Source: a virus (taxonomy: Duplodnaviria > Heunggongvirae > Uroviricota > Caudoviricetes). From it: a stretch of DNA of 32,919 bases. Numbering within the stretch: the stretch's first letter is position 1; each line of letters starts with the position of its first letter. A program made the translations under genes and the position numbers. The stretch lies in the IMG/VR virus record IMGVR_UViG_2778261314_000004; one strand, written 5' to 3'. Below the pieces are notes generated by a model that did not search any database, was not told the origin of the DNA, and saw nothing but the letters and a program-made list of their open reading frames with translations. Below are positions 1 through 25,621 of the stretch, piece by piece.

Positions 1-1053
1 TTACGGGGTAATGCCAACCGCTGCCGCCACTTTGTCGCCACTTGGCAGCGTTGCCAGAGGATTGAAACGGAGCGCCGTTTCCAGATGATCCGGTGCTAGA
101 TGTGCGTAACGCATCGTCATTTTTATATCGTGGTGTCCGAGAATTTTTTGTAAGGCCAGAATGTTTCCACCCGACATCATGAAGTGCGCCGCAAACGTAT
201 GGCGCAGAACGTGTGTGAGTTGACCGCGAGGGAGCACGATAGACGTTTTTTCCATCACGGATAAAAATTGAAAATAGCAGTCTGTGAAGAAATTGAACCC
301 ATCAAGCGCCATGATCTCTTCGTAAAGCTCTTTACTGATAGGGATGCTTCTGTTTTTCTTCCCTTTCGTTCTGACAAAGGTAATTCGGTATTTGGTCACC
401 TGTGAGCGGGTAAGATTTACGGCTTCACGCCAGCGTGCGCCTGTGCTTAAGCATATCTTAACTACCAGTGCCAGAATTGGGTCCTGACGTTTGCAATCAG
501 CCAGCAATTCAACAATCTGCTCATGGGTAAGCCATGCCATCTCTTTTTCTGCGATGGTGAATTTTCGCATGTTCTCCAGTGGGTTCGGATACGACCATTC
601 GCCCAGACGGGATAGTTCGCTAAAAACACTACTTAGATAGCTTTGCTCCAGGTTAATGGTGACCGGGCTGGCTCCTTTCTTCCATTTCTCGCTGAAGTAG
701 ATCTCACCTGTCAGTCGTTTATCTCGATAATGGGCAAACATTTTAGATGTGAGATCGGTTGCAAGGGGATTGCCCAGAGCGTCAACCATCAGCAGCAATT
801 TGTCATAGACATGCTGCCCAGCAGTCAGAGATTTACCATGTAGTTTGAACCATAGTTCAACCACGTCTTTCAGTGTTCGACGATCCACTGATTCACCCAG
901 CCAGGGCTTTGCTTCGGTTTCTTCCATCGTGTGGCGCTCAAAAGCCAGAGCTTCGCCTTTGGTGGCGAATTGTTTACGCACACGACGCCCACTGCGTCCG
1001 GCGGGGTAACATTCGCAAAGCCATTTTCCTGTGGTGAGTTTTCGTACTGCCAT
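1..1053 (-). CDS. int: Tyrosine integrase (P2/186-family), 350 aa
   Basis: Full minus-strand ORF whose stop codon is the first triplet of the window. C-terminal region has tyrosine-recombinase signature residues (LSTGARWREA; HVLRHTFAAH...RYAHL). Sits at the prophage end next to the repressor operon. Confidence 0.9.
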   Translation of the reverse strand: MAVRKLTTGKWLCECYPAGRSGRRVRKQFATKGEALAFERHTMEETEAKPWLGESVDRRTLKDVVELWFKLHGKSLTAGQHVYDKLLLMVDALGNPLATDLTSKMFAHYRDKRLTGEIYFSEKWKKGASPVTINLEQSYLSSVFSELSRLGEWSYPNPLENMRKFTIAEKEMAWLTHEQIVELLADCKRQDPILALVVKICLSTGARWREAVNLTRSQVTKYRITFVRTKGKKNRSIPISKELYEEIMALDGFNFFTDCYFQFLSVMEKTSIVLPRGQLTHVLRHTFAAHFMMSGGNILALQKILGHHDIKMTMRYAHLAPDHLETALRFNPLATLPSGDKVAAAVGITP

Positions 1054-1131
1054 AAAAAATGCCCTCCAGTGGAGAGCATTTTTACTGTATGTATAACCAG
1101 TGTCAATGTATGATGCTTGAGGTTACATACA

Positions 1132-1515
1132 TCATAAGTACCGATATGATTGCGGGGCCGTTATGTTATCACCTAATGAACTTAGATGAAGCGGTTGATC
1201 ATAGATTTTTAGATTGCCAATTTCTATAGCAAAGGCTTTTTCTTTGCTATGAAAATATGAGTCAAAAAATTGTTTGCTGATACCTGCGTATTGGCTTGTT
1301 TTTTCCCATACAATACTTGGCTTGTCTTCTATAACATCTGCAATGTCAAATTCAGCAACAACTTTACCGACAGGCATTGTTGAATAAATAACCACAGATT
1401 TTACATCCGGTTTTTTGAAAATTCCTTTTCGGAATTCAAATTTCTTTGTTCCATTAAGGATTTTTTCTACATGCTCTGGGTTAATTGACAATAATACTTT
1501 CATTGACGCCACCAA
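1132..1515 (-). CDS. Standalone ASCH-domain (PUA-like fold) protein, ~123-127 aa; alternative start at 1503
   Basis: Translation MKVLLSINPEHVEKILNGTKKFEFRKG...VVIYSTMPVGKVVAEFDIADV...AFAIEIGNLKIYDQP follows the pattern I recall for ASCH family proteins. AT-rich codon usage. Overlaps the upstream gene by 23-35 nt. Confidence 0.7.
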   Translation of the reverse strand: MVASMKVLLSINPEHVEKILNGTKKFEFRKGIFKKPDVKSVVIYSTMPVGKVVAEFDIADVIEDKPSIVWEKTSQYAGISKQFFDSYFHSKEKAFAIEIGNLKIYDQPLHLSSLGDNITAPQSYRYL

Positions 1516-2551
1516 GTTTAATAATGCTATTAAACTGTTCGTTTGTTAACTTCATGATCCCCCAGTAAGCTCGCGGGGATAATCCTACTTCAGAAATAAG
1601 TTTAGCACGATTTAGTCTTTTGGGCAAAGCAAGGTTATATGTAAAGCTTATAATATATGGGTATTTTTTTGTTCTATAAAAACTTTTAAGCTCAGATTCT
1701 GTAAAAACAGAATATCTAGAACAGTAATTTAGAAATTCTTTCTCTGTAACGAAAGAGTTTATATTTCTAACTTTTTCTACTACACATAAAGAAGTAGCAA
1801 CAGAACGGTAATATGCAGGCCCTTGATTATCGGATGTTCGGTATATAACGATTATATCGTTTGGCTTCATTAATTCAACATCTGACATGCCACAAATATA
1901 TACTTTTCTAATGCTATTTGCATATGATACATCAGCAACAACATCTGGTGACTCTGTAATTAATTTTGAGTCAGGGAATAAACGAGTATGAAATACGGGG
2001 TATATTGAAAGCAAGAATTTATTTTCACTGCCTCTGTTATTAATAAATGGATAATCTGACAGTATATCGCCCGTAAGAGCATTACTATTCATTTCTTTTA
2101 TTAGTACTCGCTCTACACCATTTTCAGATTCTTTTACTCCAATATCTATAAAGCCATAGATTTTGAATAGTCTAATTAAGTAGTCATGTTTTTCAAAAAC
2201 AGTCACATATATATTGTTAGCATTATTATCTAGAGCGTGATCGAATATTTTTTTTAAAAATCGTTGACCACGAAGAGTTCCTTTTGGATTAAATTTAAAT
2301 GTTCCAACTTTTAGATGAATACCATCAGGAATATTTGGTTTTGTATCTTCAATGATACCTACTTCTGTTTTTAGATACAAAAAACCATCAATTTTATTTT
2401 GTTCATCATAAAGGACATATGCATAATCATTTGATTTACATTTAGAATGGAACCAATCAATAAACCCATGAGCATAATCGGATTTTAAAGAGTCAAAAAA
2501 AACATCAGAAAAATCTACTTGATTAAAAGGTATGTATTTTAAGTTTTCCAT
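1481..2551 (-). CDS. Two-domain protein: N-terminal GNAT-like acetyltransferase fold (degenerate), C-terminal ASCH/PUA-like domain, 356 aa
   Basis: Long ORF in the AT-rich island. N-terminal half has GNAT-like secondary-structure rhythm (HLKVGTFKFNPKGTLRGQRFLKKIFDHALDNNANNIYVTVFE...LFKIYGFIDIG). C-terminal half resembles the ASCH pattern (IIVIYRTSD...SLCVVEKVRNI...FTESELKSFY...YIISFTYNLALPKRL). Start codon lies 2 nt after the stop of the upstream gene. Domain calls are by eye only. Confidence 0.55.
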   Translation of the reverse strand: MENLKYIPFNQVDFSDVFFDSLKSDYAHGFIDWFHSKCKSNDYAYVLYDEQNKIDGFLYLKTEVGIIEDTKPNIPDGIHLKVGTFKFNPKGTLRGQRFLKKIFDHALDNNANNIYVTVFEKHDYLIRLFKIYGFIDIGVKESENGVERVLIKEMNSNALTGDILSDYPFINNRGSENKFLLSIYPVFHTRLFPDSKLITESPDVVADVSYANSIRKVYICGMSDVELMKPNDIIVIYRTSDNQGPAYYRSVATSLCVVEKVRNINSFVTEKEFLNYCSRYSVFTESELKSFYRTKKYPYIISFTYNLALPKRLNRAKLISEVGLSPRAYWGIMKLTNEQFNSIIKLGGVNESIIVN

Positions 2552-2553
2552 GT

Positions 2554-3336
2554 TTACAATCCTATTTTAAAATCACATGATAAGCAAATTGATTTAGTTT
2601 TAGATATGACGGCGAGTGTTTTCCCCGGAGTTTGACAATTAGTACAAACATTCCAATTTTTCGGTTTTCCATCAATCTTATATATGTTGGCTAAAATATC
2701 ATCTAAAGGAAAAAATGTTTTCATCATGTCTATAATGCTTGCTGCATAGTTTTTCTTTGCCTCGACTAATTTTTGTTCAGGCATGTTTTTATCATTTATC
2801 AAGCAATGAACCAGGTTATTAAGAGGCTCTTGATATATCTCCTCTCGAAAAATTAGAAATGCACTTAAAAAGTCTTTACGTATTTCTTTATTATTACTTT
2901 TACCTAAGTGAATTACTTTATTTCTTTCTTTGCGCAAAATATCATAAATTTCATTAAAGCGCGGTGAAAGATTTCGCCCACTGATACTTTGTGCTATTCT
3001 ATGTAGCTCGGTTGCGTCTAATGTTGAACATTCGAAAAATGATTTGTTTTTATAGCAGTCTTTTACTTCTTTTAAAAGTAAATAAACACTATGCTCAGCA
3101 ATTATAGACTTTAGATATATTTCAGCAGAATTAAAGAGTATTACTAAGCCAGATTGAAAGAAACTCTCTTTTTCGGATATTAAGCGTTTCAGTCGTTGTT
3201 CTTCTGTTTCAGGTTGAGCTGGGGCTTGCAATAACTCAATGTCAGAATAAAAGTGTAAGTAGAATGTTTTAATGAAAAACTCAAGGTTCCTTTTGGCATA
3301 AAGAAGCATCTCTTCATTGTTAGGAAGGTCTGTCAT
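2554..3336 (-). CDS. HEPN-like protein (R-N-x3-H motif) with C-terminal CxxC...CxxC zinc ribbon, 260 aa
   Basis: ORF start ATG directly abuts the cI stop codon (TAA-ATG at 3334-3339) with AAGGA Shine-Dalgarno inside the cI 3' end. Contains LRKERNKVIHLG, matching the Rx4-6H HEPN catalytic motif. C-terminus has CTNCQ...CLSCDF. AT-rich. Confidence 0.5.
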   Translation of the reverse strand: MTDLPNNEEMLLYAKRNLEFFIKTFYLHFYSDIELLQAPAQPETEEQRLKRLISEKESFFQSGLVILFNSAEIYLKSIIAEHSVYLLLKEVKDCYKNKSFFECSTLDATELHRIAQSISGRNLSPRFNEIYDILRKERNKVIHLGKSNNKEIRKDFLSAFLIFREEIYQEPLNNLVHCLINDKNMPEQKLVEAKKNYAASIIDMMKTFFPLDDILANIYKIDGKPKNWNVCTNCQTPGKTLAVISKTKSICLSCDFKIGL

Positions 3337-4293
3337 TTAAATATCCTTATATATACCAAAACATTTTGCTATTACATTAATATCCGCTAATAGACATTCA
3401 AAAGTTGTACTTTCATTAGATACTTTTACTTTTGCAATTGGAATTCTGGTTAGATCTCTAACACTAAATTTTCCTTCGATTTCAACTAACCATTTTCCAT
3501 CGGTTACTTCATCAAATGCTTTGTCTGCAAGATATACATTTCCTTCATCTACTATAGATATGGGGTTTTTCACCTTGCTGGGTAACATGGTTTTATCAAA
3601 AGGGAGATAATTTGTATCAAACAACATACCATTTATAACTTTTTTCCGTGTGATAGCAATAATATCGCTCTTAGCGTCTTCAAAGACGGGACCATTACCG
3701 GTTGTTAGCCACATTAATGAAGCTCCGGTTTCAAGTGCGCACTGGATGATCCAATCAGCTGGAAAGGTATCTCTCATGTAACGATTGGCTAATGTGCTTT
3801 TTGAAACACCAATGTGATCCGCTAGAGCTTGCCTTGTCTTAAATCCATAGGCGATAACTATTCGCTCGATTGCCGCTTTTCCTCCTTGATTAACCTCAAT
3901 GAGGCTCTCGTTCTTTCGGTGAGTATTGTTCTCATTTGGGGATTTTGTGTCTAAAGTGAGAGAATGAATCTCCTTACCATCTTTATGGTGGTTCTGTTCT
4001 GTATTATGTGTGACAGCCTCTACTGTGTTATCGGTACCAAATGCCAACCATTCAACCGACACGCCAGTTTCCATGCTGCAGATTATGACCCAGTCGGCAG
4101 GGAAGGTATCACGAGCATATCTGTTCGCCATTGTGCTTTGGGATATCCCTAAGTGGTTACAGAATGCTTGACGTGAAGTGAAGCCATAAGCTTTCAAAAT
4201 TCGGTCAATGACCTGTTGCCCTCCACGATTCTGCATGATTACAGTTTTCATTGCATCATCAACATGGCGAAATGTGATTTTGTGTGTTGACAT
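3337..4293 (-). CDS. cI: 186-type CI immunity repressor with tandemly duplicated N-terminal HTH domain, 318 aa
   Basis: Two successive copies of an HTH module (RILKAYGFTSRQAFCNHLGISQSTMANRYARDTFPADWVIICSMETGVSVEWLAFG and RIVIAYGFKTRQALADHIGVSKSTLANRYMRDTFPADWIIQCALETGASLMWLTTG) followed by a C-terminal domain. Lies divergent from an apl/cII pair, as in phage 186. Confidence 0.8.
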   Translation of the reverse strand: MSTHKITFRHVDDAMKTVIMQNRGGQQVIDRILKAYGFTSRQAFCNHLGISQSTMANRYARDTFPADWVIICSMETGVSVEWLAFGTDNTVEAVTHNTEQNHHKDGKEIHSLTLDTKSPNENNTHRKNESLIEVNQGGKAAIERIVIAYGFKTRQALADHIGVSKSTLANRYMRDTFPADWIIQCALETGASLMWLTTGNGPVFEDAKSDIIAITRKKVINGMLFDTNYLPFDKTMLPSKVKNPISIVDEGNVYLADKAFDEVTDGKWLVEIEGKFSVRDLTRIPIAKVKVSNESTTFECLLADINVIAKCFGIYKDI

Positions 4294-4381
4294 ATCCGTT
4301 TTGCGATCCTATTCTCCGATTTGTGAAGTTGAAGTCACGATTAAAACCTGCTTATCACAAGACAATAGGAGATGTTGCATC
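4294..4381. promoter_or_regulatory. Lysis-lysogeny switch region (expected pR/pL promoters and operators) between divergent cI and apl
   Basis: 88-bp intergenic region between the divergent repressor and apl starts. Contains a short direct repeat tgaagttgaagt and AT-rich promoter-like hexamers. Individual promoters were not resolved. Confidence 0.4.
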
Positions 4382-5152: not shown

Positions 5153-5449
5153 ATGCTGACGAAAGAACCATCATTTGCATCGCTGCTGGTAAAGCAAAGT
5201 CCGGCAATGCACTACGGTCACGGCTGGATCATGGGTGAGGATGGAAAACGCTGGCATCCATGTCATTCACAAGATGAATTGCTGTCTGAATTGACCACGA
5301 GGAAACGGAGAAAGTCAAAATGTATGCAGCGGAAAGTGAAGTGGTTTATCAGTTTCGTTACAGAGGGGAGAGTTATTCAGTACCTGAAGATGATTTGCTC
5401 TGTTGTTATCCGTCGTTGTCGGGCGATGGCAGTTACTTTTTCACGCTAA
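5153..5449 (+). CDS. Hypothetical early protein (position of 186 fil); 3' half overlaps the next ORF and may be over-extended
   Basis: ORF beginning MLTKEPSFASLLVKQSPAMHYGHGW... directly after cII. The C-terminal third is Arg/Cys-rich and looks less protein-like. Confidence 0.4.
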   Translation: MLTKEPSFASLLVKQSPAMHYGHGWIMGEDGKRWHPCHSQDELLSELTTRKRRKSKCMQRKVKWFISFVTEGRVIQYLKMICSVVIRRCRAMAVTFSR

Positions 5450-5544
5450 AGGATGGGACGTTTTTACGGGGAGAGCAGGTTAAAGAGACGATACGAAAAA
5501 ATGTATCTCCTCTTGAACGTTACCGTAAGAACAAAGAACGATAG
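5320..5544 (+). CDS. Hypothetical small early protein, 74 aa
   Basis: ATG preceded by GGAGAAAG Shine-Dalgarno. Protein-like composition (MYAAESEVVYQFRYRGESYSVPEDD...). Overlaps the preceding ORF in another frame. Confidence 0.45.
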   Translation: MYAAESEVVYQFRYRGESYSVPEDDLLCCYPSLSGDGSYFFTLKDGTFLRGEQVKETIRKNVSPLERYRKNKER

Positions 5545-5566
5545 TTGCGTTTTGGGGATATGAATT

Positions 5567-5908
5567 ATGGCAATTAATGGCGCTGCGGCGACTGTTCCAT
5601 TAAGCCCCGGTGAACGCCTGAATGGACTTAATCACATTGCGGAGTTAAGGGCGAAAGTTTTTGGTCTGAATATTGAGTCAGAGCTTGAGCGGTTTATTAA
5701 AGATATGCGTGATCCACGCGATATTAATAGCGAACAAAATAAACGGGCACTGGCTGCCATATTCTTTATGGCAAAAATTCCAGCTGAACGTCATAGCATC
5801 AGCATTAATGAGCTGACCACTGACGAAAAGCGGGAGTTGATTAAAGCAATGAATCATTTTCGTGCAGTAGTGAGCTTATTTCCCAGACGGCTAACCATGC
5901 CGAATTAA
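5567..5908 (+). CDS. Hypothetical early-region protein, 113 aa
   Basis: ORF with GGGGA Shine-Dalgarno about 8 nt upstream, in the early operon between cII and the replication genes. Confidence 0.55.
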   Translation: MAINGAAATVPLSPGERLNGLNHIAELRAKVFGLNIESELERFIKDMRDPRDINSEQNKRALAAIFFMAKIPAERHSISINELTTDEKRELIKAMNHFRAVVSLFPRRLTMPN

Positions 5909-10599: not shown

Positions 10600-11145
10600 A
10601 TGGACGTTATAACTGGAGTTGCAGAGTTTTTTCGAAAAGTACCTGCAGCATTTCTTGTGGCTATTACATGTGTTTTAGGTCTTATACTTTTTCTGCCAGA
10701 CTCTTTGGCAGTAAAAGTGGCTGTTGATGGCTTTCGTAATGAGTATAGGATTTTTATTGGACCTGCATTTTTACTGTCTGTATCTTATTTAGTTGCAAGA
10801 GTCTATCTCTCTTTCTATGACTTACTTGGTGAAAGGCAGGCTAAGAAGGTACGCACTTCCTACCTTGAGAAGCTAACAGCAGAAGAAAAAGGATATTTAA
10901 AGTCTTATATTACCGAAGGTGTTAATTCACTTATGTGTGGGCCTGAGGATGGGGTCATGGGGGGACTTGTGGCTAAGGGGATTACTTATAGAGCCACCAG
11001 TGTTGGGGATATGATCTACGGTTTTGCTTTCAACTTACAGCCATGGGCGCGTGAACATTTAGAGAAAAATAGTCATTTATTAGATGGGGCTATTGGGCGT
11101 GCAATGACTCCAAGAGAAAAATTAAACTTTAGATTGGGACGCTAA
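10600..11145 (+). CDS. Membrane protein, 181 aa, with N-terminal transmembrane segments; possible superinfection-exclusion (SieB-like) cargo protein
   Basis: Hydrophobic stretches AAFLVAITCVLGLILFL and GPAFLLSVSYLVARVYL. Lower G+C than flanking phage genes. Located between the cos-like site and Q, where P2-like phages carry accessory genes. Family assignment is tentative. Confidence 0.45.
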   Translation: MDVITGVAEFFRKVPAAFLVAITCVLGLILFLPDSLAVKVAVDGFRNEYRIFIGPAFLLSVSYLVARVYLSFYDLLGERQAKKVRTSYLEKLTAEEKGYLKSYITEGVNSLMCGPEDGVMGGLVAKGITYRATSVGDMIYGFAFNLQPWAREHLEKNSHLLDGAIGRAMTPREKLNFRLGR

Positions 11146-25063: not shown

Positions 25064-25621
25064 ATGCTTATTGGCTATGTACGCGTGTCAACAAATGACC
25101 AGAACACCGATTTGCAACGTAATGCACTGAACTGCGCGGGATGTGAGCGGATTTTTGAGGATAAAATCAGTGGCACTAAGTCCGACAGACCGGGGCTGAA
25201 AAAACTGCTCAGGACACTATCGGCAGGAGACACGCTGGTCGTCTGGAAGCTGGACAGGTTGGGGCGCAGTATGCGGCATCTTGTTACGCTGATAGAAGAG
25301 TTGCGCCAGCGTGGCGTGAATTTCCGAAGCCTGACTGACAGTATTGATACCAGTACCCCAATGGGCCGTTTCTTTTTTCATGTCATGGGTGCCCTGGCTG
25401 AAATGGAACGCGAACTGATAGTTGAACGCACTATGGCAGGGCTGGCTGCAGCTCGTGCCAAAGGCAGAGTAGGTGGACGCCGTCCTAAGTTGACCACCGA
25501 ACAGTGGGCACAGATTGGACGTTTACTCGAGGCCGGAGAATCAAGACAGCGTATTGCACTGATTTTTGACGTGGGCGTTGCTACCATTTATAGAAAATTT
25601 CCGGCGAATAAGAGCAATTAA
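25064..25621 (+). CDS. Serine DNA invertase (Hin/Gin/Cin/Pin family), ~185 aa
   Basis: MLIGYVRVSTNDQNTDLQRNAL... with catalytic Ser in YVRVSTNDQ and a C-terminal HTH. AGGGGA Shine-Dalgarno. Adjacent to the invertible segment. Confidence 0.9.
   Translation: MLIGYVRVSTNDQNTDLQRNALNCAGCERIFEDKISGTKSDRPGLKKLLRTLSAGDTLVVWKLDRLGRSMRHLVTLIEELRQRGVNFRSLTDSIDTSTPMGRFFFHVMGALAEMERELIVERTMAGLAAARAKGRVGGRRPKLTTEQWAQIGRLLEAGESRQRIALIFDVGVATIYRKFPANKSN

Follow-up and report, generated by a model that had tools for sequence, protein, structure and literature searches.

Several described systems bear on the locus reported here. According to Bell et al. 2020 (PMC7641849), who built on Iyer et al. 2013, a separate ASCH protein is almost always encoded in (PIN)-GNAT-EVE operons. 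These authors predicted that GNAT-EVE and ASCH proteins form toxin-antitoxin or conflict systems, none of which had then been characterised experimentally; the PIN-fused form is found alongside restriction-modification (RM) systems of type I, and the PIN-less form is common in beta- and gamma-proteobacterial prophages. A preprint by Payne et al. 2024 presented the PADLOC phage defence candidates (PDCs), 145 in number and untested, which were selected for having homologs inside loci of BREX, DISARM or type I RM. The same preprint described HEC-08 as a validated single-gene defence, composed of a DUF3644-type HEPN domain and zinc-ribbon-like domains, that depends on the histidine of the Rx4-6H motif. 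Rousset et al. 2022 (PMC9122126) found a defence hotspot between cI and int in K139-like P2-related Vibrio phages. Here we describe a cassette of three genes on the minus strand between the repressor gene cI and the integrase gene int of the virus record IMGVR_UViG_2778261314_000004. The stretch analysed (32,919 nucleotides, nt; hereafter the window) is a complete 186/P2-like Escherichia coli prophage that extends from int to ogr and has its insertion site between rcdA and ybjL. Our leading reading, to which we give about an even chance, is that the cI-int junction is a cargo slot with two stacked modules expressed in the lysogen: a GevTA-type pair (genes 2 and 3) and a separate HEPN RNase (gene 1).

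Gene 2 (1481-2551, minus strand; 356 amino acids, aa) encodes a GNAT acetyltransferase fused to a PUA-like (EVE/ASCH-type) domain. It matched the PADLOC model PDC-M11A (PDLC04419) at E = 2.4e-130, with residues 3-356 aligned to positions 11-357 of the 357-position model, and is predicted to be a GevT-like toxin. Gene 3 (1132-1503, minus strand; 123 aa), the predicted GevA-like antitoxin, encodes a stand-alone ASCH protein that matched PDC-M11B (PDLC04425) at E = 4.9e-48. Pfam also placed it in ASCH (25.1 bits, cut-off 21.2; E = 3e-5), as a preliminary description of the sequence had proposed. The start codon of gene 3 may be read as TTG at 1515, giving 127 aa, or as the ATG at 1503 chosen by RefSeq, giving 123 aa. 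Each of the two genes also matched a PHROG of unknown function. A homologous pair stands right after cI in the lambdoid Escherichia phage PhiR47_2 (GenBank PV340567.1), where it is labelled "GevT toxin" and "GevA antitoxin"; this toxin and antitoxin status is solely the depositor's annotation of a 2025 record. GevT and GevA matched the same PADLOC models with equal strength, and are 57% identical to gene 2 and 61% identical to gene 3, respectively.

Judged by these matches, genes 2 and 3 form a candidate pair that has been catalogued and named before (PDC-M11, GNAT-EVE plus ASCH, GevTA-like), and the statement in the preliminary description that the cassette is not a named system does not hold for them. 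The resemblance to PDC-M11/GevTA comprises full-length model matches, gene order, the 23-nt overlap of the two genes and the position behind a prophage repressor. The locus differs in having a HEPN-zinc-ribbon gene between the repressor and the pair, and in being carried by a 186-like rather than a lambdoid phage. With the GNAT-EVE plus ASCH operons of Bell et al. it shares a GNAT protein with a C-terminal PUA-like domain and an adjoining separate ASCH gene; unlike them it has no fused PIN domain and no AAA_17 ATPase, and a free-standing HEPN gene lies upstream. The GNAT type II toxins TacT, AtaT and ItaT likewise combine a GNAT-fold toxin, here a predicted one, with a small adjacent partner gene. 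However, the locus encodes no RHH/DUF1778 antitoxin of the kind found in TacAT and AtaRT; the partner is an ASCH protein.

The N-terminal part of gene 2 has a GNAT fold. Residues R94, G95, R97, K100, K101 and G133-F134 of the GNAT core were invariant, and Y132 nearly so, in 38 homologs. The fusion of GNAT with a PUA-like domain had been essentially correctly recognised at first, but the GNAT domain is not obviously "degenerate" as then described. In the C-terminal domain, weak Pfam EVE matches were obtained for 5 of the 38 homologs, and the window protein itself fell below the EVE threshold. A Rhizobium homolog 45% identical to gene 2 reached the EVE cut-off and is named as an EVE protein in RefSeq. 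The C-terminal domain therefore leans to EVE at the sequence level. In gene 3, the octapeptide G18-x-K20-x-x-E23-x-R25 was at least 90% conserved among 46 distinct homologs.

The GNAT-EVE family comprises more than 2,600 protein clusters. The pair is spread among temperate phages of Proteobacteria and Firmicutes, and occurs also in an archaeal virus. A distant homolog of 500 aa in Sinorhizobium has PIN_3 and GNAT domains, with ASCH and AAA_17 genes alongside, and relatives of the pair were also found beside SIR2 and DUF4365 genes. Three further contexts were noted. In Methanothermobacter phage psiM100 (8698-9594; H84/H85), the M11A homolog ORFD (26% identical) lies in the "inserted fragment IFa", indicating that the family reaches archaeal viruses as mobile cargo. 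On Rhizobium plasmid pRspNXC24b (locus L155, 5465-6604), a 379-aa gene without a Pfam match comes after the EVE/ASCH pair instead of ahead of it, and the pair is flanked by SIR2, DUF4365 and DUF6035 genes in a setting like a defence island. In Photobacterium swingsii (locus L006, 8889-11129), M11B is on the opposite strand and convergent with M11A; a separate 185-aa GNAT protein with a weak PDC-M11A match and a 405-aa protein without assignment follow. This arrangement may be a rearranged or second GNAT/ASCH module.

How the pair might act can be proposed from related enzymes. Known GNAT toxins acetylate aminoacyl-tRNA. ASCH proteins are N4-acetylcytidine (ac4C) amidohydrolases: YqfB and 19 tested proteins remove ac4C from tRNA, and the Lys and Glu of the ASCH GKER octapeptide are essential for this deacetylation. 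M11B keeps exactly these two residues. Moreover, in one comparison of two loci the M11A proteins share only 68% identity and the M11B proteins 97%, a pattern that fits an enzymatic, allele-independent antidote better than tight toxin-antitoxin binding. We propose a writer/eraser relation because M11B keeps the catalytic residues, the two genes overlap by 23 nt and the M11B and M11A identities differ. The GNAT domain of gene 2, steered to nucleic acid by the PUA-like domain, would acetylate RNA, either at cytidine N4 or on aminoacyl-tRNA. The ASCH partner encoded by gene 3 would reverse or prevent this modification and so keep the GNAT protein harmless, and infection would upset the balance between them and lead to translation arrest. 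Gene 1 would supply a separate RNA-cleaving arm of abortive infection, and is probably not needed for the pair to work. In its logic alone this scheme resembles DarTG, in which a transferase modifies nucleic acid and a partner enzyme with a "reader/eraser" fold takes the mark off. The folds and chemistry are unrelated (ADP-ribosylation and a macrodomain in DarTG, acetylation and ASCH here), and the role of M11B as eraser is a predicted one.

Gene 1 (2554-3336, minus strand; 260 aa) encodes a HEPN-fold protein with a C-terminal four-cysteine zinc ribbon. The motifs named in the preliminary description were borne out: R138-N-K-V-I-H143 (Rx4H) was invariant in 21 close family members and in 22 distant sequences, and C231/C234/C251/C254 (CxxC...CxxC) was invariant in the 21 members. 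An upstream helix with N69, S70, A71, E72 and K76 was also invariant in the family. The predicted structure is a helical bundle of HEPN type. The best match among solved structures was SO_3166 (5YEP), as for HEC-08, and the likenesses listed included MNT-HEPN toxins (5yep_B, 8xdj_A, 7ae2_A), YutE, AF0298, HI0074, the sacsin HEPN domain and Csm6. NCBIfam gave nothing useful for gene 1. Matches of the family to S27 zinc ribbons in a sequence-profile search of PDB were considered and rejected as spurious.

The 260-aa family (HEPN-260) is small, with 24 clusters from Enterobacterales and one Photobacterium. A profile search of 1.8 billion representatives retrieved 352 distant HEPN-zinc-ribbon relatives, mostly of 280-350 aa, which share the HEPN core and carry either one or two ribbons of CxxC...CxxC type. 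Several of these matched the PADLOC models HEC-08, DUF3644, PDC-S64, CARF-HEPN or Cas13c at 1e-4 to 1e-8, their scores against HEC-08 being 1e-7 to 1e-4. Gene 1 itself matched the PADLOC DUF3644 model at 2.4e-5 and HEC-08 only marginally (E = 0.0024, 15 bits). Because the HEC-08 match reached only 0.0024, we call gene 1 HEC-08-like and not a member of HEC-08. Like HEC-08 it has an N-terminal DUF3644-like HEPN domain followed by zinc-ribbon sequence and a conserved Rx4-6H motif; it is shorter (260 versus ~358 aa), has a single ribbon, and belongs to a clade always linked to M11A/B, whereas HEC-08 is solo. From these profile comparisons gene 1 is a new small clade of the HEPN-zinc-ribbon kind, an uncurated family near DUF3644/HEC-08. 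HEPN-zinc-ribbon relatives of ~300 aa in Pseudomonas, Acinetobacter and Photobacterium were solo genes in variable regions in the three contexts looked up.

The genomic distribution speaks for a separation of gene 1 from the pair. M11A was followed by an overlapping M11B in 80 of 80 IMG/VR loci, and a HEPN gene preceded M11A in only 9. Approximately 60 of the 80 loci had no cargo gene between repressor and M11A; for most of these pair-only loci the upstream open reading frame (ORF) proved to be a repressor of S24 or short-HTH type. Pseudoalteromonas has a bare pair, and in SopEphi an M11A/B-like pair (orf12/orf13) occupies the other P2 hotspot. In 186-like prophages the position ahead of M11A, which we term slot 1, was taken by the HEPN gene or by one of several alternatives: a 355-aa protein with C-terminal transmembrane (TM) helices (K355), an 8xMP membrane protein (PF24838, 1.6e-25), a 315-aa coiled-coil/TM protein, or a 295-aa BRCT-like protein. 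The possibility that the 355-aa protein of Klebsiella is a divergent HEPN protein was rejected, as BLASTP found no similarity.

Slot types were interleaved in the M11A tree, and two comparisons revealed the exchanges directly. Locus L032, with HEPN, and locus L030, with the 315-aa protein, have 95% identity up to the cI 3' end, and the same identity resumes at the start codon of M11A. Locus L028, with HEPN, and locus L029, with the 355-aa protein, have the same breakpoints. The simplest account is that independent cargo genes were captured upstream of a resident pair within the immunity module of one phage lineage. An obligate three-part machine, in which the ASCH and GNAT components sense or modify nucleic acid and the HEPN protein is the effector as the preliminary description had it, is not supported: the pair stands alone in most loci and its first gene is swapped on near-identical backbones. 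Stacked defence cargo, presumably expressed in the lysogen, is the best reading of these sequences.

A number of observations weigh against this reading. The HEPN-260 clade was always accompanied by M11A/B, in 14 of 14 loci (9 of 9 in IMG/VR and 5 more), down to 35% identity and in hosts that include Hafnia, Enterobacter, Dickeya and Photobacterium. The family was absent from the cultured-phage collection. HEPN and pair diverge in parallel (35% versus 58% identity in Photobacterium), and only 2 nt separate the HEPN gene from M11A. Strict linkage, parallel divergence and close spacing could signify that the genes depend on each other in function. In distant homologs of M11A a PIN RNase is fused to the protein, so that an RNase may be an integral partner of GNAT-EVE. 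As to the individual parts, a Foldseek search of PDB with gene 1 gave no significant match and did not recover the HEPN fold, and Pfam gave no HEPN/DUF3644 match and no domain. The PUA-like domain of gene 2 lacks the ASCH catalytic motif GxKxxExR. PDC-M11 is only a "guilt by embedding" candidate, and our literature searches on PDC-M11, GevT/GevA and GNAT-EVE found no experimental paper; the single mention of PDC-M11 is a passing one in an O157 genome survey. In the plasmid collection, the HEPN-260 family had one weak partial match only (27% identity, Agrobacterium).

The alternative that survives best, possible but in our view doubtful, is a single three-component system in which a GNAT-EVE/ASCH core acts as sensor and regulator of an interchangeable upstream effector, here the HEPN RNase and elsewhere membrane proteins. 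The free HEPN RNase would then stand in functionally for the PIN domain that RM-associated homologs have fused to GNAT-EVE, and the PIN_3-GNAT fusions with ASCH and AAA_17 neighbours, as in Bell et al., speak for such a design. So does the linkage just described, which extends to other occupants of slot 1: K355 (6 of 6) and the close 8xMP relatives (10 of 10) are likewise followed by the pair. The spacing is operonic (2-28 nt), and the slot-1 proteins resemble typical abortive-infection effectors (RNase, multi-TM). The trio has persisted in a Dickeya prophage so decayed that int is gone and cI is a frameshifted remnant. However, most loci hold the pair without a third gene, including the one annotated as toxin-antitoxin, and the slot-1 swaps leave M11A and M11B ~95% unchanged and hence show no co-adaptation. 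Distant HEPN-zinc-ribbon relatives and distant 8xMP relatives exist without the pair, and HEC-08 acts as a single gene. Shared descent within the immunity module of one phage lineage can explain the strict linkage.

A modular variant of this idea, which we regard as unlikely, takes the pair as the constant core of a three-part abortive-infection system whose plug-in effector is swapped by precise cassette exchange. The HEPN RNase would be a non-homologous replacement of the PIN domain fused in the RM-embedded relatives, and the core might signal to the effector through acetylated nucleic acid or an acetylated nucleotide.

It is more unlikely still that the genes serve the prophage itself, either as an addiction module acting by post-segregational killing or as counter-defence that modifies nucleic acid against host restriction. 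The GenBank labels call the pair simply toxin and antitoxin, the pair is widespread in temperate phages, and Bell et al. proposed that prophage GNAT-EVE proteins may protect phages from host RM. Genes located behind the repressor in the lysogen transcript would nevertheless be expressed at the wrong time to evade restriction on entry; relatives of the pair lie within BREX, DISARM or type I RM systems or beside SIR2 and DUF4365 genes; and the same junction hosts another defence candidate, PDC-S20. That the three are chance or decaying ORFs in AT-rich junk DNA, as low G+C and the lack of a curated Pfam family for gene 1 might suggest, has next to no probability and is already refuted by conservation and structure, given conservation over the full length in both Enterobacterales and Vibrionaceae (35% to 100% identity), with motifs kept invariant, confident predicted folds (predicted local distance difference test, pLDDT, 89-91) and very strong profile matches.

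The variable character of the cI-int junction was evident from genome comparison. The whole cassette was present in 28 of 5426 complete E. coli genomes; 970 further genomes share only the int end as far as window position 1113 and then diverge. Int DNA is 96-97% identical to that of relatives up to the same position. Relative to E. coli prophages of 96-97% identity, the replaced block, a mosaic of cI and the three cargo genes, is 1114-4366 (blastn breakpoints against L002, L004 and L005). Close relatives hold a 189-aa cI and a 63-aa ORF in its place, and in E2348/69 the junction contains a KAP NTPase and a second, long CI. The contents seen between conserved flanks were thus the 63-aa ORF, the PDC-S20 KAP gene with a second CI, or the present cassette; the preliminary description had suggested a comparison with relatives to see whether the junction is normally empty.

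The K139-like hotspot is similar in that variable cargo lies between repressor and integrase of a P2-related phage and is oriented as the repressor. It differs in that the phages here are 186-like and infect Enterobacterales, and the cargo there was not shown to include the M11 pair. The cargo is likewise co-oriented with the repressor in the case of lambda rexAB. Exclusion and defence genes such as rexAB sit right behind the repressor, in the lysogen transcript.

The cassette has a base composition of its own. G+C was 0.314 in the cargo (1114-3336) and 0.535 in the remaining 4367-32919, confirming by computation an estimate by eye of one third versus half; the lowest value for any cargo-sized window elsewhere in the prophage was 0.452. 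Genome comparison and G+C together uphold the placement in a lysogenic operon, the foreign composition and the variability of the junction. The AT-rich genes were correctly delimited at first, with two corrections: low G+C reaches into the 3' third of cI (0.321 at 3337-3700), and the variable block includes cI.

The gene string on the minus strand runs cI, the 260-aa gene, the 356-aa gene, the 123/127-aa gene, a 78-nt spacer and int, and its junctions, read directly from the sequence, are as first reported. cI (3337-4293, minus strand), identified by Pfam, encodes a CI repressor of 318 aa (299 aa as called by RefSeq), heads the leftward operon and lies inside the variable block. Its stop codon TAA abuts the ATG of gene 1; genes 1 and 2 are joined as TAA-AC-ATG, 2 nt apart; and genes 2 and 3 overlap by 23 nt with the ATG start or 35 nt with the TTG start. 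The 23-nt overlap suggests that genes 2 and 3 are translationally coupled. The spacer between gene 3 and int (1054-1131, minus strand) has a promoter-like site at 1106-1078. Int (1-1053, minus strand), a tyrosine integrase by Pfam Int_N and Phage_integrase, ends the string. No terminator-like site was found on the minus strand from 4293 to 1053, which is consistent with, but no proof of, a single transcript from cI to int. Promoter-like sites were not enriched (19 versus 14.9 ± 3.2 in shuffled sequences), and no internal promoter can be claimed. A non-coding RNA inside the cassette was considered and rejected, as there was no Rfam match anywhere in the window. In derivatives of E. coli EC0880B (L156, 1642-2988), an IS4 element sits in the gene 3-int spacer; it was rejected as a natural knock-out, for it cuts int off from the upstream genes and disrupts no gene.

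In the repressor itself Pfam found two tandem Phage_CI_repr HTH domains and a CI C-terminal domain, and this is the sole CI of the prophage. Its identity to the 189-aa cI product of close relatives is only 47-50%; to the second CI of E2348/69 it is 51%, measured along the full length. The double-HTH CI may be either an immunity variant or part of the cargo. In E2348/69 the double-HTH second CI is placed between the normal cI and the KAP gene, and L028 has two CI genes in tandem. The KAP P-loop NTPase of E2348/69 (L005, 5141-7607; also in L065 and L132) is PADLOC PDC-S20 (5e-78), with weaker PifA and QatA matches. One IMG/VR contig carries cI, KAP, an int fragment, a cI fragment, 8xMP, M11A, M11B and int in that order, a hybrid of two cargo sets.

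The view of the cassette as an undescribed module needs division: genes 2 and 3 are catalogued, gene 1 is a new small clade of a kind with a validated relative, and neither the combination of genes nor the exchangeable slot ahead of the pair seems to have been reported before. The locus is a good, though not unprecedented, candidate anti-phage locus judging by its gene content. At 2.2 kb it offers a compact test bed for the role of the widespread prophage GNAT-EVE plus ASCH pair. Two questions arise: does the ASCH partner serve as an acetyl "eraser", a role newly reported for ASCH proteins acting on tRNA ac4C, and does the gene ahead of the pair defend independently or plug in as an effector? 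The idea of a cI-int "defence hotspot", drawn from K139-like phages of Vibrio, is here carried over to Enterobacterales and their 186-like prophages. Should the ordinary reading be true, the locus adds one more case to those of prophage immunity operons with stacked defence cargo.

Three other regions of the prophage were noted. A second short region unlike that of 90-97% identical relatives lies at ~5308-5567, where a gene of the Fil family is 297 nt long versus 201 nt. At ~10600-11145 a gene annotated as "superinfection exclusion B family protein" lies between the portal gene and the DinI-like/replication region; this interval is the classic P2 cargo hotspot, the one occupied in SopEphi by the M11A/B-like pair. 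At ~25064-25621 a recombinase-family (invertase-like) gene adjoins duplicated, oppositely oriented tail-fibre and tail-fibre-assembly genes, an arrangement that suggests an invertible host-range segment.

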